A stretch of 64,000 nucleotides of DNA from an uncultured Actinomycetota bacterium. GTDB taxonomy: Bacteria; Actinomycetota; Actinomycetes; BP-191. A program made the position numbers and the translations under genes. The notes beneath the pieces were generated by a model. The model saw nothing but the letters and a program-made list of their open reading frames with translations. It ran no database searches and had not been told where the DNA came from. Below are positions 27,101-57,973 of this stretch, piece after piece (within the stretch, counting starts at the first letter, position 1; every line of letters starts with the position of its first letter). Location: contig CAVXXT010000005.1 of NCBI GenBank assembly GCA_963765815.1, positions 150,238 through 214,237 of the forward strand, in the 5' to 3' direction.

Positions 27101-28806
27101 TGCCGCCGCTGGTGACGGCCAGCCGCTGTGCGCCGGCCCGCGGGGTCAGCGCGCCGGTGACGCGGTCCCAGACGATCCGCGGCCGCATCTCGGCGAAGTC
27201 GTCGCTGGGGAACCGGCCGGAGAGCATGTCCAGCGTCGCTTCCAGCGCGCTCTGCGGCAGCGTCGCGAACGGGGCGGCCCGGCGTACGACGTCGGCCAGC
27301 TCGTCGACGGTCCAGGTTTCCATCGCCACCATCGACACGACCTGCTGGGCCAGCACGTCGAGCGGGTTGCGGGGGTAGCGCATCGACTCGATCTCGCCGT
27401 CGCGCATCCGCTCGGCGATCACCGCCGACGGGACGAGGTCGCCGCGGTACTTCGGGAAGAGCACGCCGCGGGAGATCGCGCCGACCTGGTGTCCCGCGCG
27501 GCCGACCCGCTGCAGGCCGGACGCGACGGACGGGGGCGACTCGACCTGGATGACCAGGTCGACCGCGCCCATGTCGATGCCGAGCTCGAGGCTGCTGGTG
27601 GCGACCACCGCGGGCAGTCGGCCGGCCTTGAGCGCCTCCTCGATCAGGACCCGCTGCTCGCGGCTGACGCTGCCGTGGTGGGCGCGAGCGATCTCGCTCG
27701 GCGCGCCGGTGGCGCCCCGGCCGATGCCGGACTGCGCGAACGCGCTGCTCTCGCCCATGAGGTTCGGCGGCGTCAGCCCGAACCCGCCCCCTAGACTTTC
27801 GCGACCGGGTCGCGAAAGTTGCCTTCCCCGCACGGGCTGCGACCGGGTCGCGATTCGTGTCATCGGCGAGTGCCGCAGCCTCGTTCTGCTCGGCGGCGAT
27901 CTCGTTGAGTCGGCTGCAGAGACGCTCGGCCAGCCGGCGCGAGTTGGCGAAGACGATGGTCGAGCGGTGCGCCCGGATCAGCTCGACGATGCGGTGCTCG
28001 ACCGCCGGCCACATCGACCCGGCCGCGCCGGTCGGCGTCGCGCCGTCGGCGGTGAAGCCGCTGTCGGCGCCGACCGCGGTCATGTCCTCGACCGGTACGA
28101 CGACGCTGAGCTCGATCGTCTTCGGCGACTTCGGGTTGACGACGGTGACGTCGCGCGCGCCGCCGAGGAACCGCGACACCTCGTCGAGGGGGCGCACCGT
28201 CGCCGACAGGCCGATGCGACGGGCCGGCCTCTCCAGCAGCGCGTCGAGGCGCTCCAGGGACAGGGCGAGGTGCGCGCCGCGCTTGGTCGAGACCATCGCG
28301 TGGATCTCGTCGACGATGACGGTGTCGACGTACCGCAGGGCTTCTCTCGCCTGAGACGTGAGGATGAGGAAGAGCGACTCCGGCGTGGTGATGAGGATGT
28401 CCGGCGGCCGGCCGGCGAACCTCCGGCGCTCCTCGGCCGGGGTGTCGCCGGAGCGAACGCCGACCGTGACGTCGGGCTCCGGGAGACCGAGGCGCGCGGC
28501 GGCCTGGCGGATGCCGGCGAGCGGGGCGCGCAGGTTGCGCTCGACGTCGACGGCGAGGGCCTTGAGCGGCGAGACGTAGAGGACGCGCAACCGCTGCTTC
28601 GGCTCCGGCGGAGGAGCGGCGGCGAGCCGGTCGAGGGCGGAGAGGAACGCCGCGAGCGTCTTGCCGGAACCGGTGGGGGCCACGACGAGCGCGTCCTGAT
28701 CCTTGGCGATCGCGGCCCAGGCGCCGGCCTGGGCCGGGGTCGGCGCGGCGAAGGACGACTCGAACCACGCGCGGGTCGCGGGTGCGAACGACGCGAGCGG
28801 GTCCAT
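24113..28806 (-). pseudogene. lhr: Lhr ATP-dependent helicase, split into three frames as sequenced
   Basis: APTGSGKT, DEIH and GLSAT in ORF 27037..28926; AHHGS and QRVGRAGH in ORF 25047..27863; C-terminal domain in ORF 24113..26116. Frameshifts near 27790 and 26147. Confidence 0.92.
27795..27853. repeat. Palindromic REP-like insertion inside lhr
   Basis: Perfect inverted repeat ACTTTCGCGACC-G-GGTCGCGAAAGT (27795-27819) plus a second GCGACCGGGTCGCGA at 27839-27853. Confidence 0.7.
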
Positions 28807-40106: not shown

Positions 40107-40174
40107 ACCGGGGAGCGTTTCCGTCACTGCAAGCGCGTCTGGACCGGGTTTCAGTGACCGAAACGCTCCCCGGT
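40107..40174. repeat. Long intergenic palindrome (REP-like, GGAGCG/CGCTCC arms)
   Basis: ACCGGGGAGCGTTTCCGTCACTG-N22-CAGTGACCGAAACGCTCCCCGGT, a near-perfect 23-bp stem. Confidence 0.75.
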
Positions 40175-42379: not shown

Positions 42380-43285
42380 ATGACAGCGCGGGTGATCGCG
42401 GTCGTCGGCCCCACCGCGGTCGGCAAGTCGGCCGCCGGCATCGCGATCGCGCAGGCGGTCGGCGGTGAGGTCGTCAACGCCGACTCGATGCAGCTCTACC
42501 GCGGCATGGACGTCGGCACTGCCAAGCTCACGACCGCGGAGCAGCAAGGCGTCCCGCACCACCTCCTCGACGTGCTCGACGTCCGCGAGACGTCGACCGT
42601 CGCCGGCTACCAGGCGATGGCGCGACGCACGATCGACGAGCTGATCGCGCGCGGCGTCACGCCGGTGCTGGTCGGGGGCAGCGGCCTGTACGTGCAGGCG
42701 ACCGTCGACGACCTCACGTTCCCGGCAACCGATGCCGACGTCCGGGCCGCGCTCGAGGCCGAGCTCGACGAGGTCGGCCCCGGTGCTCTGCACGCGCGGC
42801 TCGTCGAGGCCGACCCCGAGGCGGCCGCGAAGATCCACCCGAGCAACGGCCGTCGTACCGTGCGCGCGCTCGAGGTCATCGCTCTCACCGGCGAGCCCTA
42901 CAGCGCGAGCGGACCCGGGATGACGGCGTACCGCGCCCACTACGACGCGACGATGGTCGGCCTCGACCTCGACACCGACTCCCTCGACGCGCGGATCGAG
43001 CACCGGGTCGACCACATGTGGGAGCAGGGCCTGGTCGACGAGGTACGCCGCCTGGAGGCCGACGGCCTGCGCGAGGGCGTCACCGCCAGTCGCGCGCTCG
43101 GCTACGCGCAGGTGCTCGCGCACCTGTCCGGCGAGTACGACGAGCGCACCGCGCGCGACCGGACCGTCCAGGCGACGCGACGGTTCGTCCGCCGTCAGCG
43201 GTCGTGGTTCCGCCGCGATCAGCGGATCACCTGGGTCGCCCCGGGTGACGACGTCATAGCGGCAGCGACGTGGTCATCAAGATGA
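42380..43285 (+). CDS. miaA: tRNA dimethylallyltransferase
   Basis: GPTAVGKS, NADSMQLYRGMDVGTAK, VGGSGLY and RRQRSWFR. Confidence 0.97.
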   Translation: MTARVIAVVGPTAVGKSAAGIAIAQAVGGEVVNADSMQLYRGMDVGTAKLTTAEQQGVPHHLLDVLDVRETSTVAGYQAMARRTIDELIARGVTPVLVGGSGLYVQATVDDLTFPATDADVRAALEAELDEVGPGALHARLVEADPEAAAKIHPSNGRRTVRALEVIALTGEPYSASGPGMTAYRAHYDATMVGLDLDTDSLDARIEHRVDHMWEQGLVDEVRRLEADGLREGVTASRALGYAQVLAHLSGEYDERTARDRTVQATRRFVRRQRSWFRRDQRITWVAPGDDVIAAATWSSR

Positions 43286-43333: not shown

Positions 43334-44146
43334 ATGACGATGTTCGAGACCGACCTCATCTCGGCCCTGCAGCACGCCCTCCAGGCGGAGCAGTTCCGGC
43401 TCCTGTACCAGCCCCAGGTGGACCTCGCGAGCGGTGAGGTGCTTGGCCTCGAGGCGCTGATCCGGTGGCAGCACCCGGAGCGCGGGCTGCTCGAGCCCCG
43501 CGAGTTCCTGCCGACGGCCGTCAGCAGCGAGCTCATCGTCAACATCGGCCAGTTCGTCCTCACCGAGGCCTGCCGCGAGGTCGCCAACTGGCACTCGCTG
43601 TTCACGCCCGGCTACACGCGCAAGAAGGAGATGTGGGTCAACGTCGCCGCCGTCGAGCTGATGCAGCCCGACTTCGTCGAGTGGTGCGGCGCGCTGATGG
43701 ACTCCGCCTCGATCGACGCCGGCGTACTCGGCCTGGAGATCTCCGAAGCCGACCTGATCGCCCACAGCGACGAGCTCCGTGCCGTGCTCATCGCGCTGAA
43801 GGAGATCGGCGTCATGCTCGCCGTCGACGACTTCGGCACCTGGTACTCGTCGCTGTCCGGCATCCGCAACCTGCCGATCGACGCGGTGAAACTCGGTCAC
43901 CAGTTCGTCCGCGGGGTCGGCCACGACCTCGACGAGGACGGCGTCGTCGCCGCCGTCATCGCGCTGGCGCACGCGCGCGGCCTGACCGTCGTCGCCGAGG
44001 GCGTCGAGAGCTGGACCGAGGGCGCGCGCCTGTGCGACATGGGCTGCGACCGGGCGCACGGCTACCTGTTCAGCGGACCGCAGCGCGCCGACCAGGCCCG
44101 CTGGATGCTCACCCGCGGCACCGGCTGGCACATCCCCACCCAGTAA
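43334..44146 (+). CDS. Stand-alone EAL domain protein (putative c-di-GMP phosphodiesterase)
   Basis: YQPQVDL, EALIRWQHP, DDFGTWYSS, VAEGVE and HGYLFS. Confidence 0.9.
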   Translation: MTMFETDLISALQHALQAEQFRLLYQPQVDLASGEVLGLEALIRWQHPERGLLEPREFLPTAVSSELIVNIGQFVLTEACREVANWHSLFTPGYTRKKEMWVNVAAVELMQPDFVEWCGALMDSASIDAGVLGLEISEADLIAHSDELRAVLIALKEIGVMLAVDDFGTWYSSLSGIRNLPIDAVKLGHQFVRGVGHDLDEDGVVAAVIALAHARGLTVVAEGVESWTEGARLCDMGCDRAHGYLFSGPQRADQARWMLTRGTGWHIPTQ

Positions 44147-44169
44147 CCCTCCCCGGCCGGCTGGCTGGC

Positions 44170-44211
44170 CGTGGAGCGAAACTCGACCTGACTGCCGGTT
44201 ATTGCTCCACG
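44170..44211. repeat. REP-like palindrome, family B, at the 3' end of the DUF559-like gene
   Basis: CGTGGAGCG-N24-TGCTCCACG; overlaps the gene's stop codon. Confidence 0.75.
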
Positions 44212-45089
44212 CCCAGGGCGCGGCGAACCTGATCGGCGACCTTGGCGGGCTCACGCCTGAGCTGCCGGCTGGTGAACCGGAGGGGCAGCAGCCGACAGCC
44301 GATCGAGATCTCGTTCATCCGTGACAGGTCCGCCTCCCAGTCCTGGATGGCGAAGTGGCAGATCCGGCCGTCGATCTCCACGTAGTAGCCGTGCTCCGGA
44401 TAGCCGAGATCGGCGTAGCGGGTCACGCCGTCGTCGCACAACAAGGGGACGTTGCGCTCCGGCTCCGGCAGCCGGAACCGGCGTACGACGCGGATGTAGT
44501 CGATCTCCGGCATCGACCGCGATCCGAGGCAGATGTGGGTGAGCAGCTCTTCGAGCCGGATCGATCGCAGCCCGAGGTGCTCGGCCATCTGCACCAGGCG
44601 GGGGCCGTTGGTTTGGCCCTGCTGCACCACGCCGGTGATGAAGGCCTCCGCATCGGTCCACGACCGCTTGGCCATGGCGTGCTCCAGCACCGCGCGCTCG
44701 AGGCGCAGCACCAGGACGCCGTCCAGCGTCGCCGTGCATCGATCACAGAGGTGGCGGGTCCGATGAGCTGTGAGCGCACCGGTTGCCCGAAGCCGTTGGT
44801 CGACGGTCGTGACGACCTCGAGAGCGCCGGGTCCGGCGGAAGCGAGGCCGTGCCACCACACTGCCGACCTTCCGGCGAGTGCGGCGGTGGGAGCGCTCGC
44901 TGCCAGCGCCTTTGCTCTGGTCCGAGCGTTGGCGTCCGGCCGCACGTAGAGCCCTCGGCGAAGTCGTTCCCACTGCCGCCGCGCCACTCGAGTGCACGCT
45001 ACGTCGCTCGTCACGCCGTGCCGACGGCAGTCGGCAACGTCGATCCAGCCACGGCGGTCGAGCAGGCGCTCGAGTTCCACGATCCCCAT
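44199..45089 (-). CDS. AbiEi-like wHTH plus DUF559/Vsr-like PD-(D/E)XK nuclease-domain protein
   Basis: N-terminal WERLRRGLY, ALAGRSA and GSRSMPE; C-terminal LPEPERN...ADLGY....VEIDG..H...D..R.N.....LRFT; atypical codon usage; start uncertain. Confidence 0.8.
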   Translation of the reverse strand: MGIVELERLLDRRGWIDVADCRRHGVTSDVACTRVARRQWERLRRGLYVRPDANARTRAKALAASAPTAALAGRSAVWWHGLASAGPGALEVVTTVDQRLRATGALTAHRTRHLCDRCTATLDGVLVLRLERAVLEHAMAKRSWTDAEAFITGVVQQGQTNGPRLVQMAEHLGLRSIRLEELLTHICLGSRSMPEIDYIRVVRRFRLPEPERNVPLLCDDGVTRYADLGYPEHGYYVEIDGRICHFAIQDWEADLSRMNEISIGCRLLPLRFTSRQLRREPAKVADQVRRALGVEQ

Positions 45090-45152
45090 CCGTCGAGGGT
45101 GCGGTGGCGGCATGGCCGCGCGGCGGCCGAACGGCGAGGCTGTGGACCGGCG

Positions 45153-45198
45153 GGTGTGGAGCGTTAGCCGGCGTGGGCGCCGGATATCGCTCCACACC
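45153..45198. repeat. REP-like palindrome, family B, upstream of the DUF559-like gene
   Basis: GGTGTGGAGCG-N24-CGCTCCACACC with perfect 11-bp arms. Confidence 0.8.
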
Positions 45199-45233
45199 AG
45201 GGCCAGCTGGGCGCGGCGCCTACGATCGTCGGC

Positions 45234-46076
45234 GTGAGGTTCACCAAGGGACACGGCACGGCGAACGACTTCGTGCTCATCGACGACGTCGACGGCCGGC
45301 TGGCGCTCACCGACGCCGCGGTTGCCGCGATCTGCGACCGCCGTCGCGGCGTCGGCGCCGACGGCATCCTGCGGGTGGTCCGCACGAGGTACGTCGAGGG
45401 CTGGGCGCAGGACGCCGACTCAGCCGAGTGGTTCATGGACTACCGCAACGCCGACGGCGGGGCGGTCGAGATGTGCGGCAACGGCATCCGGGTCTTCGCC
45501 CGCTACCTCGCGGACCGTGGGCTCGTCACCGGCAGCGAGCTCAGCATCGGCACGCGCGACGGCGTGAAGACGGTCTGGCTCACCGACGGCGGCCAGGTCA
45601 CCGTCGACATGGGCCAGGCACGCGACACCGAGCTGCTGCCCGACGACGGCGTCTTCGTCTCCATGGGCAACCCGCACGTCGTGCTCTTCGCCGACGACCT
45701 CGCCACCGCACCGGTCGAGGAGGTCGGCCGGCGGATCGAGCAGGAGTGGGACGGCGGCACCAACGTCGAGTTCGTCCGCGTAGTCGACCGCTCCGCGATC
45801 GGCATGCGGGTCTGGGAGCGCGGCGTCGGCGAGACGATGTCCTGCGGCACCGGCGCCTGCGCCAGCGCGGTCGCAGCCAGCCTGCGCGGCTACGCCGACC
45901 GCATCGTCGACGTATCGCTGCCGGGCGGCACGCTGGCCGTCGAGTGGACCGAGTCAGGCGCCGTCCTGCTCACGGGTCCCGCAGTCCTGGCGTACGACGG
46001 GGAGCTCCGACCCGAGTGGCTGTCCGCGACCGACCTCACCATCGCCGATCGCGAAGCAGAGAAGGAGAACGCATGA
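45234..46076 (+). CDS. dapF: Diaminopimelate epimerase
   Basis: FTKGHGTANDF, EMCGNG, MGNPH and ERGVGETMSCGTG. Confidence 0.96.
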   Translation: MRFTKGHGTANDFVLIDDVDGRLALTDAAVAAICDRRRGVGADGILRVVRTRYVEGWAQDADSAEWFMDYRNADGGAVEMCGNGIRVFARYLADRGLVTGSELSIGTRDGVKTVWLTDGGQVTVDMGQARDTELLPDDGVFVSMGNPHVVLFADDLATAPVEEVGRRIEQEWDGGTNVEFVRVVDRSAIGMRVWERGVGETMSCGTGACASAVAASLRGYADRIVDVSLPGGTLAVEWTESGAVLLTGPAVLAYDGELRPEWLSATDLTIADREAEKENA

Positions 46077-51229: not shown

Positions 51230-51332
51230 GGCGCCGGCCGGCACGCGTCGTTGGAGATCTCACGAGCGCGGCCCGGTCGGCTCGGGAGTTCCAGCGTTGC
51301 CGTCGGCGGCCGCGACGGCGAAGACTCGACCC

Positions 51333-52575: not shown

Positions 52576-54075
52576 ATGCGTCGCAGCACCCAGCGCCGGA
52601 CCGTCCACCTCGGCCTGCTCGCCGCCGTGGTCGGCGTCGCCGCGCCGATCGCGATCGCCAAGCCGTCGCAGGGCATCGTCTGCACCGGCGCCGAGACGCC
52701 GACGCTGAGCTTCGCCAAGCCGACGTTCATCGACCGCAACCGGGCCGGCGGCGAGCCGGTCAGCGTCGTCGCGCAGGACGGCTCGATCACCGTGTCGACC
52801 CATGCGGGTACGACGCACGCCTACAAGGACCCGCAGACGGTGGCGCTCGGCTCGAGCGACTTCCTCAACGGCTACACCAACCAGACGCTCAACTGGCGCT
52901 CCATCGACGGCGGCAGCTCGTGGCGCTTCGTCGGCACCGGCGGCACGGAGCTCGGCCCGCACTCGCCCACGTCGAGCGGCTTCAGCGACCCCGACCTGTC
53001 GATGGACGCGAGCGGCAACCTCTACAACACCGAGATCAACCTGGCCAACGTCGCCGTCTTCGCCAGCCCGGACGACGGCAAGAGCTGGCCGATCGCCAAC
53101 CCGGTCGCCTCGTCCGGCGACCGCCCGTGGGTCACCGGCGCGGGCGAGGACGAGGTCTACCTCTACATCAACGCGCCGAAGCAGCTGCTGCGCAGCAACG
53201 ACCGCGGCCTGACGTGGACGATCGTGTCCACCGCGTTCCCGGCCGACGGCAAGCTGCTGGTCGACCCGCTGCACCCCAACGGCGGCCTGATCGGCCCGAT
53301 CGGCGACGGCGGTGCGGCGATCACCGAGGACGGCGGCGTGACGTGGGAGGCCTATGACACCGCGTTCTCCGCGTCGACGCAGTTCTTCGGGACGATCGCG
53401 GTCGACCGGGCCGGCAACATCTACGCCGCGGCGGCCGGCGGCTACCTCGGCGCTGAGGACACCGAGGCCGACGGTCAGGTGGAGTTCAACTACTTCAACC
53501 GCGCGACCAAGGAGTGGCTGCCGGAGCCGATCTCGATCCCGATCCCCAAGGGCGACGCGATGTGGCCCTGGCTGATCGCCGGCGACGACGGCCGGGTCGC
53601 GGTGATCTGGTACCAGAACTTCGCCGGCGAGCCGACGAAGTTCTACGCCTTCGCCGCGGTGACCAACAACGGCGTCGGCAGCGTCGAGACCTGCCGCGAC
53701 CGCGGCGGGCGGGTCATGTCGAGCAAGCGGGTGCCGCCGCGCTTCGCGGTCGCCAACGCCAGCGGCCGCCCGATCCACGAGGGGCCGATCTGCCTCGGCG
53801 GCACCGGCTGCAACGCGGCGACCGACTTCTCCGCCGGCGACCGGCGCCTCGGCGACTTCTTCACGGTCAACTTCGACCACACCGGGCGGGTCTTCATCGT
53901 CTCCGCGGACACGACCCTGCGCGGCACGAACGGCGTACCGAAGATCGTGTCCAACCCGATCTTCATCAAGCAGAAGAGCGGGGCGAGCCTGCTCGCGAAG
54001 CCCGATCAGATCCGCCCGTCGCGCTGCCTGTTCCCCCTGACGACCTGCGCCCCGGAGCCCCGCTCCGGCTCCTAG
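52576..54075 (+). CDS. Secreted BNR/Asp-box (sialidase-like beta-propeller) protein
   Basis: Signal peptide; Asp boxes SIDGGSSW, SPDDGKSW, SNDRGLTW and TEDGGVTW. Confidence 0.82.
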   Translation: MRRSTQRRTVHLGLLAAVVGVAAPIAIAKPSQGIVCTGAETPTLSFAKPTFIDRNRAGGEPVSVVAQDGSITVSTHAGTTHAYKDPQTVALGSSDFLNGYTNQTLNWRSIDGGSSWRFVGTGGTELGPHSPTSSGFSDPDLSMDASGNLYNTEINLANVAVFASPDDGKSWPIANPVASSGDRPWVTGAGEDEVYLYINAPKQLLRSNDRGLTWTIVSTAFPADGKLLVDPLHPNGGLIGPIGDGGAAITEDGGVTWEAYDTAFSASTQFFGTIAVDRAGNIYAAAAGGYLGAEDTEADGQVEFNYFNRATKEWLPEPISIPIPKGDAMWPWLIAGDDGRVAVIWYQNFAGEPTKFYAFAAVTNNGVGSVETCRDRGGRVMSSKRVPPRFAVANASGRPIHEGPICLGGTGCNAATDFSAGDRRLGDFFTVNFDHTGRVFIVSADTTLRGTNGVPKIVSNPIFIKQKSGASLLAKPDQIRPSRCLFPLTTCAPEPRSGS

Positions 54076-55043
54076 CTGTACTGACCGGACAGGTTGTTGA
54101 CGCGGTCGATCGGCGCGAGCCCGCCGAGTGATGTGTGGGCTCGGTGATGGTTGTAGGTGTGCAGCCACTTGTCGAGGGCTGCGGCCCGTCGGGCGCTTGA
54201 GGTGTAGACGCGGACGTAGGCCCACTCCTCGAGCAGGGTGCGGTTGAAGCGTTCGACCTTGCCGTTGACCTGGGGCCGGTAGGCCGGGATGAGGACGTGC
54301 CGGGCGCCGAGTTCGGCTAGGGCTGCCTGGAAGTCGTTCGAGCGGCGGTAGTTCAGCGCGTTGTCGGTCATTACCTCTTCGATAGCGATGCCGACGCGGG
54401 CGAAGTCCGCCGCTGCGCGGCGCAGAAAGCCGGCGCAGGAAGGTCCGGTCTCGTCGGCGAGGGTTTCGGAGTAGGCGTAGCGGCTGCGGTCGTCGACGGC
54501 GGAGTGGACGTAGTCGTAGCCGATGCGCTGCTTCTTGGAGTGGGCCTTGCGGCGGCCGAGTTCGCTGTCGCGGCCGTGGGCGCGCCACCCACCGCCAGTG
54601 CGGATCTTGCCGAGCTTCTTCACGTCGACATGCACCAGCTCGCCCGGCCGGGCGCGCTCATACCGACGGATCACCCGCCCGGTGGGACGGTCCATCCATG
54701 CCAGCCGGTTCAGCCGCAGCCGGCACAGCACCTGGTAGACCGTCGAGGACGCCAGGCCGAGCCGGAACCCGATCCGCACCGGGCCGAGCTTCTCGCTCCG
54801 GCGAAGCCGCTCCACCCGGGCCTCGAGCCGCGTCGAGACCATCCGCGGCGAGCGGTGCGGGCGGCTCGACCGGTCCTGCAGCCCGTCGACGCCGTCGAGC
54901 AGATACCGCTGCCACCACTTCGTCGCGGTCGCACGAGACACGCCCATCTCGTCCGCGACGTGGGCGATCGGCCGGCCATCGCAGATCCGCTCGCACATCG
55001 TGAGCCGACCCGCCGGGGTCAAACGGGCATTACGGTGAGCCAT
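54072..55043 (-). CDS. IS481 family transposase
   Basis: MAHRNARLTPAGR, HVDVKKLG, VMTDN, NGKVERFNRTL and YNHHRAH; stop codon lies in the TSD. Confidence 0.96.
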   Translation of the reverse strand: MAHRNARLTPAGRLTMCERICDGRPIAHVADEMGVSRATATKWWQRYLLDGVDGLQDRSSRPHRSPRMVSTRLEARVERLRRSEKLGPVRIGFRLGLASSTVYQVLCRLRLNRLAWMDRPTGRVIRRYERARPGELVHVDVKKLGKIRTGGGWRAHGRDSELGRRKAHSKKQRIGYDYVHSAVDDRSRYAYSETLADETGPSCAGFLRRAAADFARVGIAIEEVMTDNALNYRRSNDFQAALAELGARHVLIPAYRPQVNGKVERFNRTLLEEWAYVRVYTSSARRAAALDKWLHTYNHHRAHTSLGGLAPIDRVNNLSGQYS

Positions 55044-55133
55044 GTGAGCCTCCTGGGCTGAAGCGGGGTGTCTAGACAGCCCTCACTTCGCCCGGAGGCT
55101 CACTTCATGTCAACAACGTCTGTGGTCAGTACA
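54077..55133 (-). mobile_element. Complete IS481-family insertion sequence (1057 bp)
   Basis: 25-bp imperfect TIRs TGTACTGACC-N6-GTTGTTGAC; 6-bp TSD CCTAGC at 54071-54076 and 55134-55139. Confidence 0.95.
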
Positions 55134-55155: not shown

Positions 55156-55205
55156 GAACGTTGAAGCGATCTGCACCGTTGTGAGCGTGCCGCGCTTCAA
55201 GGTTC
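55156..55205. repeat. REP-like palindrome, family B variant, next to IS481
   Basis: TTGAAGCG-N24-CGCTTCAA (55161-55200), extended by GAAC/GTTC. Confidence 0.65.
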
Positions 55206-57133: not shown

Positions 57134-57222
57134 GTCGGCGATTGTGGGACGAATCCGGGCACCCGGCAACGGGTCCTGTGGACCGCGTGACCAGTGTGAA
57201 AGATGTGCCGGCGACGAGGTGG

Positions 57223-57266
57223 GTTGGAGTGATAGCGCGCTCTACAAGCCGCGCGGTCACTCCAAC
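57223..57266. repeat. REP-like palindrome, family B-related, overlapping the HAD gene stop
   Basis: GTTGGAGTGA-N24-TCACTCCAAC with perfect 10-bp arms. Confidence 0.65.
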
Positions 57267-57973
57267 TCGAGGGCGAGGGGGAGCAGGTCGCGGTGGTCGC
57301 TCACCACGTGGTCGGCGTCGGGCTCGCCGGGCGCGGGCGGGTCGTCGAAGACGGCGGTGTAGCGGGCGGTCTGCATGCCGTAGGCGCGGCCGCCGCAGAC
57401 GTCGGTGCGCCACAGGTCGCCGATGTGCAGAGCTGTCGACGGGTCCGCGATGCCGAGCCCGTCGAGCGCGCAGGCGAACATCTCCGGCCGCGGCTTGCAG
57501 CCCCCGACCTCGTCGGAGAACGCCCACACCTGCACGAGGTCGTAGAGCCCGGCCCGCCGGAAAAGCTCGCGGATCACCCGCCCCGGCGAGAAGCCCGAGT
57601 CGCAGATCACCGCCACGCCGACGCCGGCGCTTCGCAGGGAGGAGAGCACCTCGACGGCGTACGGCGTGGCCCCGGCGCCGGTGGACAGCGACGCCTCCTC
57701 GAAGACCGTGGTCAGCCGCTCTCGCAGCGAGTGGTCGTCGCTGCGTCCATGGCGATCGAGCAGCCAGTCGACGATGTGCCGCGCGACGTAGGACTCCGAC
57801 CGCAGCCACGCCTCGTGGTGGCGCTGCCAGCCCTCGGTCACCTGCACGCGCGCGTCGGCCTCGGACAGCCCCAGCTCGGCGACCAGCGCCTCGACGCGGA
57901 TGTGGGCGGCCTCGGTGTCGTCGTACGCCGTGAGCAAGGTGTTCCAGCAGTCGAACGTGACGGCGCTCAGCAC
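57257..57973 (-). CDS. HAD-superfamily hydrolase
   Basis: VTFDCWNTL, FSDEVGGCKP and HIGDLWRTDV.GG...GM. Confidence 0.88.
   Translation of the reverse strand: MLSAVTFDCWNTLLTAYDDTEAAHIRVEALVAELGLSEADARVQVTEGWQRHHEAWLRSESYVARHIVDWLLDRHGRSDDHSLRERLTTVFEEASLSTGAGATPYAVEVLSSLRSAGVGVAVICDSGFSPGRVIRELFRRAGLYDLVQVWAFSDEVGGCKPRPEMFACALDGLGIADPSTALHIGDLWRTDVCGGRAYGMQTARYTAVFDDPPAPGEPDADHVVSDHRDLLPLALELE

Follow-up and report, generated by a model that had tools for sequence, protein, structure and literature searches.

What kind of genetic unit is formed by a lone gene that is placed antisense between its neighbours and closed on both sides by similar palindromes? This question is raised by a gene, hereafter X, located in a 64,000-nt stretch of the genome of an uncultured actinobacterium ("the window" below means this whole stretch as analysed). 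Few bacterial repeats are as common as REP sequences and, to our knowledge, no enzyme class other than the HUH transposase RAYT has so far been tied to them. For the DNA considered here, the original prediction proposed a REP-like system tied to a Vsr-like nuclease not belonging to the HUH class. Here, we describe X, its palindromes and their counterparts in the same and in other genomes, and weigh this reading against its alternatives.

Gene X, its palindromes and its predicted protein

The expected antisense gene between the EAL gene and dapF is indeed present: X is contained in an open reading frame on the minus strand (44199..45254) with a likely start at ATG 45113 or 45086, its left neighbour is the EAL gene at 43334-44146 (PF00563, E 4.5e-61) and its right neighbour, divergent to X, is dapF at 45234-46076 (PF01678, E 5e-57), both identified by Pfam matches. 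Protein searches were run with 44199-45116, that is, with one codon more than in the ATG 45113 model. The codons of X, described beforehand as atypical, deviate weakly, with GC3 of 0.837 versus a crude genome mean of 0.918 (sd 0.042). The elements of the locus are arranged as follows:

44147..45220, no strand: whole insertion (palindrome, X, palindrome) of about 1.07 kb, from the EAL stop codon to a conserved TACGAT box 7 nt before the dapF GTG
44165..44216, no strand: downstream (3′) palindrome, core GTGGAGC-N26-GCTCCAC, 12 pairs, loop of 26
44199..45113, minus strand: gene X, about 304 aa from ATG 45113, with a predicted AbiEi-like half and a predicted Vsr/DUF559-type nuclease half
45140..45147, minus strand: GTCCACAG, non-coding motif conserved family-wide, placed after the upstream palindrome and 26 nt ahead of ATG 45113
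45153..45198, no strand: upstream (5′) palindrome, between X and dapF, 21-nt arms, 90% complementary, 4-nt loop

Both predicted flanking hairpins exist, TGGAGCG-N24-TGCTCCA at 44172-44209 and TGGAGCG-N24-CGCTCCA at 45157-45194, but their proposed length of 38 nt was too short: the repeat comprises 43 nt, and its copies at 44171-44213 and 45156-45198 share 72% identity at a spacing of 985 nt. The last codons and the stop codon of X fall inside the left (downstream) palindrome. Folded as DNA, the left copy has a z-score of -4.06 and the right one reaches -23.8 kcal/mol with z -8.01, none of 200 shuffles being as good in either case. Solo copies of X's own palindrome family are found at C3:15403-15452 and C7:492971-493020, both intergenic and outside the window; since the whole family thus amounts to two diverged flanks and two solos, the system of X may be decaying.

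Within the gene family the GTCCACAG motif occurs with at most one mismatch in 46 of 69 upstream windows versus 12 of 67 downstream ones, and in 21 in antisense. Its exact form TCCACAG is present in 36 of the 69 upstream windows and lies 3-27 nt past the palindrome in 18 of 20 measured cases (35 and 112 nt in the remaining two). Scanning of 44050-45300 for sigma-70 promoters and terminators returned no promoter-like site and one terminator-like site, located within the gene; the window has no match to any Rfam family at gathering thresholds, nor has X to plasmids in tblastn at E 1e-8. One DNA sequencing run accounts for 6% of the words sampled, and no RNA run is among those listed.

Judging from profile matches and from a structure model (pLDDT 94.2), the X protein is composed of an AbiEi-like winged helix with the AbiEi C-domain (approximately residues 10-196) followed by a Vsr/DUF559-type PD-(D/E)XK domain (approximately residues 200-304). 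The PADLOC AbiEi profile matches X (E 2.1e-10, residues 20-171) together with 40 of 42 aligned family members, and the model resembles the AbiEi structure 6y8q both in Foldseek (E 1.1e-7) and in VIA-align (Z 10.0 over residues 10-196). The nuclease domain superimposes in VIA-align on 3r3p_A, the catalytic domain of the homing endonuclease I-Bth0305I and its closest solved structure, with Z 11.0 and rmsd 2.9 A for 94 of 97 residues, and residues ~200-304 also match 3hrl (Z 9.9), Vsr in 1cw0 (Z 8.6) and 1vsr (Z 7.8); comparison of X with TnsA (1t0f) gives Z 5.0. The family profile detects 3hrl, a solved DUF559 protein, with E 5.8e-8 over profile positions 188-290. E204 and D236 are invariant in the family, E247, D249, G250, H254 and R266 are kept in at least 90% of it, and X retains all residues of the D ... 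E-x-D-G-x3-H motif, of which we take the acidic and histidine ones to be catalytic by analogy with Vsr. Earlier assignment of X as DUF559-like holds at the level of family profiles and fold but not for the sequence of X itself, which has no match to Pfam DUF559 (PF04480) even at E 10; among the 42 members PF04480 matches 26 (best 3.5e-15), MTES_1575 21 and AbiEi_4 18. NCBIfam gives nothing for X and only Hhe (three), ProA (three), PRK09767 (two) and vsr (one) for the 42 members, and Y1_Tnp is matched neither by X nor by any of them.

AbiEi is a winged-helix antitoxin. The consulted part of PMC7319586 describes its binding to inverted repeats, and that of PMC3985639 describes AbiE type IV as a bicistronic operon with the AbiEii (DUF1814) toxin. 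The N-terminal ~190 residues of X match AbiEi in profiles and structure; departures from AbiE are the nuclease domain joined to the AbiEi-like half, inverted repeats on either side of the gene that recur throughout the genome, and the lack of AbiEii, X being the one gene of the 1.07-kb insertion, where neither AbiEii (DUF1814) nor another partner toxin gene was found between the EAL gene and dapF. X could accordingly be imagined as an autoregulated stand-alone nuclease, for example an AbiEi-derived defence or repair factor, the upstream palindrome serving as operator and the downstream one as terminator or second operator, with the scattered palindromes spread by other means and merely bound or of shared ancestry. 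This option, which we rate as rather unlikely, draws on the repression by AbiEi proteins of their own promoters via inverted repeats (PMC7319586, in the part consulted), on the upstream palindrome directly preceding the conserved motif and the start codon and on the downstream copy occupying, at the stop codon, the usual position of a terminator; the lack of a partner toxin gene in the cassette stands against it, as do the counts and insertion boundaries described in the following sections.

Occupied and empty sites

In the same-genus genomes G003 and G001 the EAL gene and dapF are separated by 23 and 26 nt and the spacer contains neither X nor a palindrome, while the site is occupied in G000 (the genome carrying X), G002 and G007, the X-like gene of G002 having the opposite orientation. 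In G007 just 4 nt separate one palindrome from the EAL stop codon and 2 nt the other from the TACGAT box of dapF, which defines the palindromes as termini of the insertion. Two more sites filled in G000 are empty in G002, where spacers of 90 and 62 nt hold no palindrome of the respective cassette's family, and the insertions at all three compared sites begin 4-24 nt past a stop codon. No target-site duplication is visible in these three comparisons, in which the spacers have diverged to the extent that short duplications could be hidden. None of the three empty sites retains a solo palindrome, so that solo copies cannot simply be regarded as remnants of lost cassettes; where solo palindromes of the window were compared with relatives, contigs end or synteny breaks at 40107, and G000 has extra DNA at 55156. 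The EAL-dapF spacer is filled in two genera by mutual best-match proteins, 38% identical, and a family member resides there in only three of 17 genomes; signs of recent spread were not seen.

Presence or absence of the gene at fixed sites may be a parallel to EDxHD homing endonucleases, to which X is similar in its Vsr-like catalytic domain and its multidomain composition with a predicted N-terminal DNA-binding part. One of them, I-Bth0305I, acts as a dimer with a footprint of ~60 bp over a target with pseudopalindromic core, as stated in the consulted part of PMC3239194. It might therefore be supposed that palindrome, X and palindrome constitute a homing-endonuclease-like selfish cassette inserting as a unit at specific intergenic sites through a double-strand break and its homologous repair, with the palindromes as recognition or homology ends and the solos as targets or by-products. 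The clean presence or absence of whole cassettes at three sites in one genus, the filling of the same spacer in two genera, the position of all three insertions shortly past stop codons and the ranking of I-Bth0305I as nearest structure to the nuclease domain are in line with this supposition. Nevertheless, we consider it improbable: near-identical copies of the gene are absent within the genome; cassette sites are associated with no intron or intein; as each end keeps a full palindrome, the presumed recognition site survives insertion, and empty sites offer no palindrome to be cut by a palindrome-specific enzyme; solo families of 15-21 copies would need a separate explanation. Besides, X differs from I-Bth0305I and other EDxHD enzymes by location outside introns and phage genes, by the AbiEi-like N-terminal half, by a complete palindrome at each end that is also dispersed as a repeat family, and by marginal sequence similarity (family profile versus 3r3p, E 0.096). 

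Two kinds of transposable elements offer further parallels. IS200/IS605 are small elements with ends marked by hairpins rather than by long terminal inverted repeats, and in Tn7 the restriction-endonuclease-fold protein TnsA takes part in transposition, working only with TnsB. The cassette of X resembles the former in its hairpin-marked ends and the latter in the fold of its protein, but differs from both in having no HUH or DDE partner and no multiple identical gene copies. Near-identical copies, as expected of insertion sequences, were not found among the 15 full-length members in G000, which are single-copy genes with median pairwise identity of 22% and a maximum of 64%. TnsA appears in a table of PMC3424549.

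The opposite orientation of X and its G002 counterpart at the same site brings to mind an invertible switch, where the palindromes would act as inverted repeats flipping the enclosed gene. In the consulted part of PMC9881135 "DUF559 domain-containing protein" is 14-fold enriched among predicted programmed-inversion targets, and flanking copies occur in both arrangements (direct at 17 loci, inverted at 6, undecided at 9). Still, such a switch appears very unlikely to us, as the cassette has no recombinase, flipping of a whole unit of promoter and gene would leave expression unswitched, and the solo families would be left unexplained; the palindromes of G000 and G002 (scores 13-22) are too diverged to locate breakpoints or to tell inversion in place from re-insertion.

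Palindrome families and their genes

G000 contains 1967 hairpins with at least 11 pairs, and clustering reveals palindrome families of 2-21 copies, with clusters of 21, 16, 16, 16, 15, 11 and 11 copies distributed on all contigs. Paralogs accompanied by a large repeat family include those at C5:10705-11529 and C7:561433-562263. Their units have sharp boundaries and unique flanks. By a crude assignment 98 of 123 multi-copy palindromes are non-coding, as compared with 439 of 1747 singletons, and multi-copy palindromes are over-represented where neighbouring genes converge (convergent, tandem and divergent locations number 38, 39 and 7, versus 405, 1144 and 381 in the background). In the complete genome G021 the palindrome of one gene is found at ~9 sites. 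Y1_Tnp (PF01797; RAYT/IS200 type) has no match in the 84%-complete G000, the control genomes giving matches. Apart from the flanks of X, the window includes the following palindromes:

27799..27853, no strand: member of the largest family (21 copies), z -3.23, cognate paralog at G000 C5:10705-11529
40107..40174, no strand: member of a 16-copy family, z -7.46, the family bracketing its cognate paralog at G000 C8:582973-583808
55156..55205, no strand: member of a small family, z -3.50, no cognate gene found
57221..57268, no strand: solo palindrome, z -7.01, its family bracketing the paralog at G000 C8:773797-774621

Some of these had been taken for relatives of X's palindrome. The element at 55162-55199, interpreted as its compensatory variant, is a member of a separate family (GAACnTTGAAGCGATCTGCACCGT..) with its own conserved interior, of which hairpin clustering recovered three copies and the pattern scan a fourth, similar one; 57223-57266 and 40107-40174 belong to the families bracketing the paralogs C8:773797-774621 and C8:582973-583808, respectively, and the presumed degenerate relative at ~51249-51296 is not significant (z -1.5, 13 of 200 shuffles folding as well). 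The strict motif, assumed to unite them, has only five matches in 3.36 Mb, being rare and split among three unrelated families. The listed relatives thus represent separate palindrome families and not one copied element; for two of the three real ones a cognate paralog is present elsewhere in the genome.

In G000 a matching pair of own palindromes brackets 12 of 19 paralogs, and seven of eight same-cluster hairpin pairs situated 500-2000 nt apart enclose a family gene, with hairpin-to-hairpin gaps of 986-1041 nt. As had been anticipated, homologs are flanked above background: when upstream and downstream flanks are compared, the cognate score exceeds the 99th percentile of 638 non-cognate pairs at 32 of the 54 loci scored in 24 related genomes, and the corresponding result is 14 of 27 loci from an independent phylum-wide sample (11 of 22 without unpublished genomes). 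The flank pair of X itself scores 30, just below this percentile (31). Taken together with the abundance of hairpins and with the rarity and heterogeneity of the strict motif, this value is what could be said for the bracketing being a coincidence of chance hairpins or generic terminators in a GC-rich genome. Such coincidence is refuted by cognate scores lying far above non-cognate ones, by the enclosure of family genes within same-family pairs, by repetition of the pattern in the independent sample and by fold z-scores of -4 to -8, leaving it a negligible probability.

The same counts bear on the autoregulated nuclease. No clear strand bias is present in stem mismatches (37 G-T versus 25 A-C on the sense strand), which fits DNA-level recognition and so agrees with an operator function, but autoregulation does not explain why an operator sequence should recur in the terminator at 32 of 54 loci, why palindromes are the exact termini of insertions and why seven of eight same-family pairs ~1 kb apart enclose a family gene. 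It also implies some other palindrome-spreading enzyme, none of which was found in a search that covered Y1_Tnp.

Of 301 genomes sampled from the phylum, 143 carry family members, and five genomes scoring zero with X alone have one to three members each in the family profile search; the family counts 46,793 clusters at E <=1e-10 and 14,912 clusters (50% identity) at E <=1e-30. Some of the genes are inherited at the same site within a genus and, being single-copy, diverged and partly inherited in place, they recall single-copy RAYTs.

There are also observations counting against a REP-type reading. A matched pair is missing in seven of the 19 G000 paralogs and in 40-50% of homologs elsewhere, and for two large families (16 and 15 copies) the 84%-complete assembly contains no cognate gene. 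Two G000 paralogs that are 64% identical have unrelated palindromes. The supposed co-phylogeny of protein and arm failed to emerge from a Mantel test over 32 loci (r -0.06, with 1535 of 2000 permutations as high), palindrome cores being common to just the two closest protein pairs. Double substitutions within families leave the positions paired in 172 cases and broken in 167, which is about half.

A candidate REP-type system

The central idea, that of a REP-like system whose associated nuclease is Vsr-like and non-HUH, found strong support in the genome-wide and cross-genome counts together with the fold and motifs. We assign roughly even odds (probability about 0.5) to the reading in which nucleases of the X type and their own palindromes form a repeat system of REP type in which a PD-(D/E)XK enzyme takes the place of the HUH RAYT. 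In such a system X would be a sequence-specific DNA-binding nuclease making up one cassette with the two bracketing palindromes. G000 has about 19 genes of this kind, most of them between copies of a gene-specific palindrome that is also scattered as extragenic solos. The data demonstrate the anatomy, the association of genes with palindromes, the presence or absence of cassettes at matching sites of related genomes and the conservation of the nuclease motifs. We infer binding, dimerisation, cleavage and the role of the protein in palindrome spreading in the following form. Each protein, probably dimeric by analogy, would recognise both arms of its own palindrome family and nick or cut there; the break, together with host repair or replication, would lead to copying and homogenisation of the palindromes, and on rare occasions the whole cassette might be moved. 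A PD-(D/E)XK nuclease alone is incapable of strand transfer, so that the spreading requires host functions, which speaks against the proposed scheme.

Comparison with REPIN/RAYT systems is based on the consulted parts of PMC3337134, PMC3116915 and 10.1101/119735. Common to both are families of short extragenic palindromes that are scattered along the chromosome with enrichment at the 3′ ends of genes, a diverged single-copy gene for each family, situated between its own palindromes with vertical inheritance at some loci, and coexistence of several systems in a genome, each with its own repeat sequence. The differences concern, first of all, the enzyme, which here is predicted to combine an AbiEi-like winged helix with a Vsr/DUF559 PD-(D/E)XK domain instead of a Y1 HUH transposase, so that any chemistry of mobilisation must differ as well. 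The systems described here are much more numerous (~19 genes per genome), have far fewer copies each (2-21), carry flanking copies in direct or inverted orientation and reside in Actinobacteria. In the publications searched, part of which were represented by title or abstract, we found no description of an association of DUF559/AbiEi nucleases with palindromes and, within the parts consulted, nothing tying REPIN/RAYT to Actinobacteria in the relevant sense.

More tentatively, and with odds that we put below even, these loci may represent an undescribed class in which REP-type palindrome families are each propagated and maintained by their own winged-helix and Vsr-like nuclease via DNA breakage and host repair rather than HUH transposition. 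Such a class would occur widely in Actinobacteria, with as many as ~19 systems running in parallel in one genome, and would comprise a very large protein family that diversifies fast. If the REP-type reading is true, a second, unrelated enzyme family has the geometry of a gene between its own repeats, implying that the REP lifestyle evolved more than once, and a function would be gained for a protein family of great size whose annotation is limited to "DUF559 / AbiEi domain protein". This could explain assembly breaks at such repeats in these GC-rich genomes, and also why DUF559 genes stand out in inverted-repeat screens. Natural pairs of protein and palindrome would then provide a ready set for studying how DNA specificities diversify together and, possibly, a source of long-site nucleases.

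The gene between the EAL gene and dapF and its bracketing palindromes

The source genome (G000) comprises 3.36 Mb in 9 contigs with 72% G+C and is 84% complete; the window corresponds to its C5:150238-214237. Within its conserved gene row miaA-EAL-dapF a minus-strand gene, hereafter X, is placed between the last two members:

42380-43285, miaA
43334-44146, EAL-domain gene
44199..45254, minus strand, open reading frame of X, likely starting at ATG 45113 or 45086
45234-46076, dapF

The hairpins predicted on both sides of X are indeed present, and repeat search resolved them as a 43-nt element present twice (44171-44213 and 45156-45198; 72% identity, 985 nt apart), the left copy containing the stop codon and last codons of X and the right one forming a hairpin with arms of 21 nt. 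Folded as single-stranded DNA, they gave z -4.06 (left) and z -8.01 (right), with 0 of 200 shuffles as good in each case; GC3 of X is 0.837, lower than the crude genome mean (0.918). The idea of one motif shared by these and other hairpins of the window did not survive, its strict form having only 5 occurrences genome-wide, from three unrelated sequence families. The palindrome family proper to X, GTGGAGC-N26-GCTCCAC, is small and worn, consisting of 4 members, namely the pair flanking the gene and two solo copies located between genes of other contigs. The hairpin at 55162, taken in the original prediction for a "compensatory" copy, belongs to a separate family with its own conserved interior, those at 57223 and 40107, proposed as relatives, belong to two further families, and the degenerate relative suspected near 51249 lacks significance (z -1.5).

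Association of family genes with palindromes of their own

Paralogs of X were detected in G000 by tblastn with X as query, the best of them (C8:773797-774621) being bracketed by two palindromes of the 57223 family. A family HMM made from homologs and then used on the same genome gave 19 loci; 12 of them are surrounded by a matching palindrome pair with sequence particular to each pair, while the remaining 7 are fragments or have one palindrome only or none detectable. A blind genome-wide hairpin census (minimum 11 pairs, no more than 1 mismatch, loop lengths 3-41 nt) yielded 1967 hairpins in G000, which were clustered with blastn-short. Same-cluster hairpins lie 500-2000 nt apart in 8 pairs, 7 of them enclosing a family gene (inter-hairpin gaps 986-1041 nt) and the eighth enclosing unrelated small genes. 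In the family gene tied to a 16-copy repeat family (C8:582973-583808), HMM positions 1-203 and 200-276 are read in different frames, possible explanations being a frameshift, pseudogenization or misassembly.

Using X as query, homologs were found in 24 of 41 related genomes (67 matches). All these matches and three weak G000 paralogs made up a set of 70 loci, of which 16 with partial genes or flanks below 200 nt were left out (L012, L016, L030, L032, L037, L038, L040, L043, L044, L050, L054, L057, L062, L063, L067 and L070). For each gene the windows upstream and downstream were compared with each other, and 638 non-cognate upstream/downstream pairs supplied the cut-off, a score of 31 at their 99th percentile; the cognate score exceeds 31 in 32 of 54 loci and equals 30 for X itself. 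The upstream copy is positioned about 110-190 nt ahead of HMM position 1, and the downstream copy starts no more than about 25 nt from the stop codon; in two loci (L019 and L017) the downstream palindrome is doubled in tandem at a spacing of about 90-120 nt. In an independent search across the phylum, the family profile matched 143 of 301 genomes, a tally including 10 genomes flagged unpublished. From a phylum-wide sample of 29 new loci 2 were left out, and the same flank test was passed by 14 of 27 (3 of the 14 from unpublished genomes) or by 11 of 22 without unpublished genomes. In the complete genome G021 the palindrome of one gene occurs at ~9 sites and that of another gene at 3. Searched against 1.84 billion representatives, the profile retrieved 14,912 protein clusters at E<=1e-30 and 46,793 at E<=1e-10.

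A non-coding motif shared across the family, (T)[GA]TCCACAGAT, stands behind the upstream palindrome at about half of the loci, irrespective of palindrome sequence (upstream regions of L001-L070; window 45140-45147, minus strand, 26 nt ahead of the ATG of X). It lies 3-27 nt past the palindrome in 18 of 20 loci measured, and 35 and 112 nt past it in the other two; its heptamer is also found in the stem of one 15-copy G000 repeat family. A less likely reading, compatible with recognition and cutting of the palindromes by the protein, takes them for operator-like elements of an autoregulated nuclease.

Occupied and empty sites and the dispersed repeats

In all 17 genomes searched dapF was located, and the EAL-dapF site is occupied by a family member in 3 of them (G000, G002 and G007); one unoccupied site is from a genome flagged unpublished (G022). 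The same-genus genomes G003 and G001 have EAL-dapF gaps of 23 and 26 nt with palindrome and X both absent. In G007, which encodes the best match of X outside the genus (38% identical), one palindrome is situated 4 nt past the EAL stop and the other 2 nt ahead of a TACGAT box; the palindromes are therefore termini of inserted DNA, and the cassette of X (palindrome-gene-palindrome) is an insertion with palindromes as its ends. The G002 gene, 64% identical to X, has the opposite orientation, for which inversion and re-insertion cannot be told apart. At the same junction G006 (L077) carries 560 nt of other DNA, in which a family member was not detected. The TACGAT box is kept 7 nt ahead of the dapF GTG in all genomes compared (window 45221-45236; downstream junctions of L025, L100, L101 and L102), suggesting that dapF mRNA may be leaderless or near-leaderless, with the -35 region replaced by the cassette palindrome. 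A CATACT box is likewise kept behind the C8 cassette.

The cassette at C8:773797 is present in G000, G001 and G003 and missing in G002 (90-nt spacer), that at C3:593996 of G000 is also missing in G002 (62-nt spacer), neither spacer containing a palindrome of the respective cassette's family, and at a fourth site all four genomes carry a family member. A solo palindrome was retained at 0 of 3 empty sites, and target duplication is not visible in the three empty/occupied comparisons. That the cassettes are of a homing type, itself compatible with recognition and cutting of the palindromes, is likewise a less likely reading. Although the proteins encoded at the shared C8 site are 54% identical, G000 has a palindrome there with no relation to the one in G001 and G003; the nuclease domain is the most conserved part of the protein (62-86%) and HMM positions 46-100 the least (36-53%). 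Predicted inversion targets in a published screen showed a 14-fold enrichment of DUF559 proteins (PMC9881135), a result that fits genes placed between palindromes.

Palindrome clusters of G000 reach 21, 16, 16, 16, 15, 11, 11, 7, 5 and 5 copies, with members on all contigs, the units being 55-75 nt long with sharp boundaries and unique flanks. Of 123 palindromes in clusters of at least 5 copies, 98 lie in crude non-coding DNA (20% of the genome), versus 439 of 1747 singleton hairpins. Convergent, tandem and divergent gene settings account for 38, 39 and 7 multi-copy palindromes, respectively (background 405, 1144 and 381), excluding 10 copies flanking family genes, 23 called "inside" genes and 1 at a contig end. 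A cognate gene could be assigned to about six of the nine largest clusters and, within this assembly, to neither of two others with 16 and 15 copies; one more, with 5 identical copies, resembles the end of an insertion sequence. Within families, double substitutions kept pairing in 172 cases and broke it in 167, a modest excess above chance. The 16-copy family without cognate gene forms three tandem doublets, 76-87 nt start to start (C3:629360-629486, C7:499168-499303 and C8:304956-305086), reminiscent of REP doublets. In alignments of clusters 0-8 the 5′ flank of the consensus is rich in C and the 3′ flank rich in G, so that the palindromes may extend as weak outer arms. A 60-nt hairpin at 55044-55103, probably an insertion sequence end, has 5 copies in G000 (4 of the same sequence and 1 reverse-complement with small differences), abuts the start of the minus-strand gene 54072-55043 and is absent at that site in G001 and G003; a member of a small palindrome family lies 53 nt beyond it.

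The protein and its proposed action

X alone gives a weak Pfam match to AbiEi_4 (E 0.011) and none to DUF559; among 42 aligned family members DUF559 matches 26, MTES_1575 21 and AbiEi_4 18, while PADLOC AbiEi models match 40 (X: E 2.1e-10, residues 20-171). Compared with structures, the family profile found the DUF559 structure 3hrl (E 5.8e-8), PvuRts1I (1.1e-4), I-Bth0305I (0.096) and AbiEi (0.13). For the confident AlphaFold model of X (pLDDT 94.2), Foldseek ranked AbiEi (6y8q, E 1.1e-7) and Rv2827c at the top, and VIA-align gave Z 11.0 for the I-Bth0305I catalytic domain (94 residues, 2.9 A), 10.0 for AbiEi (183 residues), 9.9 for 3hrl and 8.6 for Vsr. Residues E204 and D236 are invariant and E247, D249, G250, H254 and R266 nearly so, the 15 full-length G000 members having a median identity of 22% and a maximum of 64%. 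The cassette of X contains no second gene, so an AbiE toxin-antitoxin pair is excluded.

X-type cassettes share their geometry with REP/RAYT systems (repetitive extragenic palindromes with a Y1 HUH tyrosine transposase), but the enzyme is unrelated to RAYT, and a search of the 84% complete G000 yielded no Y1_Tnp gene. Palindromic repeat families linked to DUF559/AbiEi-type genes were not found described in the literature covered, which excludes most subscription journals and leaves absence unproven. The family proteins may act as dimers by analogy with I-Bth0305I, whose dimer has a footprint of 60 bp (PMC3239194), and with AbiEi, which binds inverted repeats (PMC7319586). Against a simple specificity story count the null result of the Mantel test, 64%-identical paralogs carrying unrelated palindromes, the many family members without a detectable palindrome pair and the small, worn palindrome family of X. 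We rate as the likeliest reading, with a probability of about one half, that each protein recognises and nicks or cuts its own palindrome: the AbiEi-like half would provide recognition and the Vsr-like half the nick or cut, and breakage followed by host repair would multiply and homogenise the repeats.
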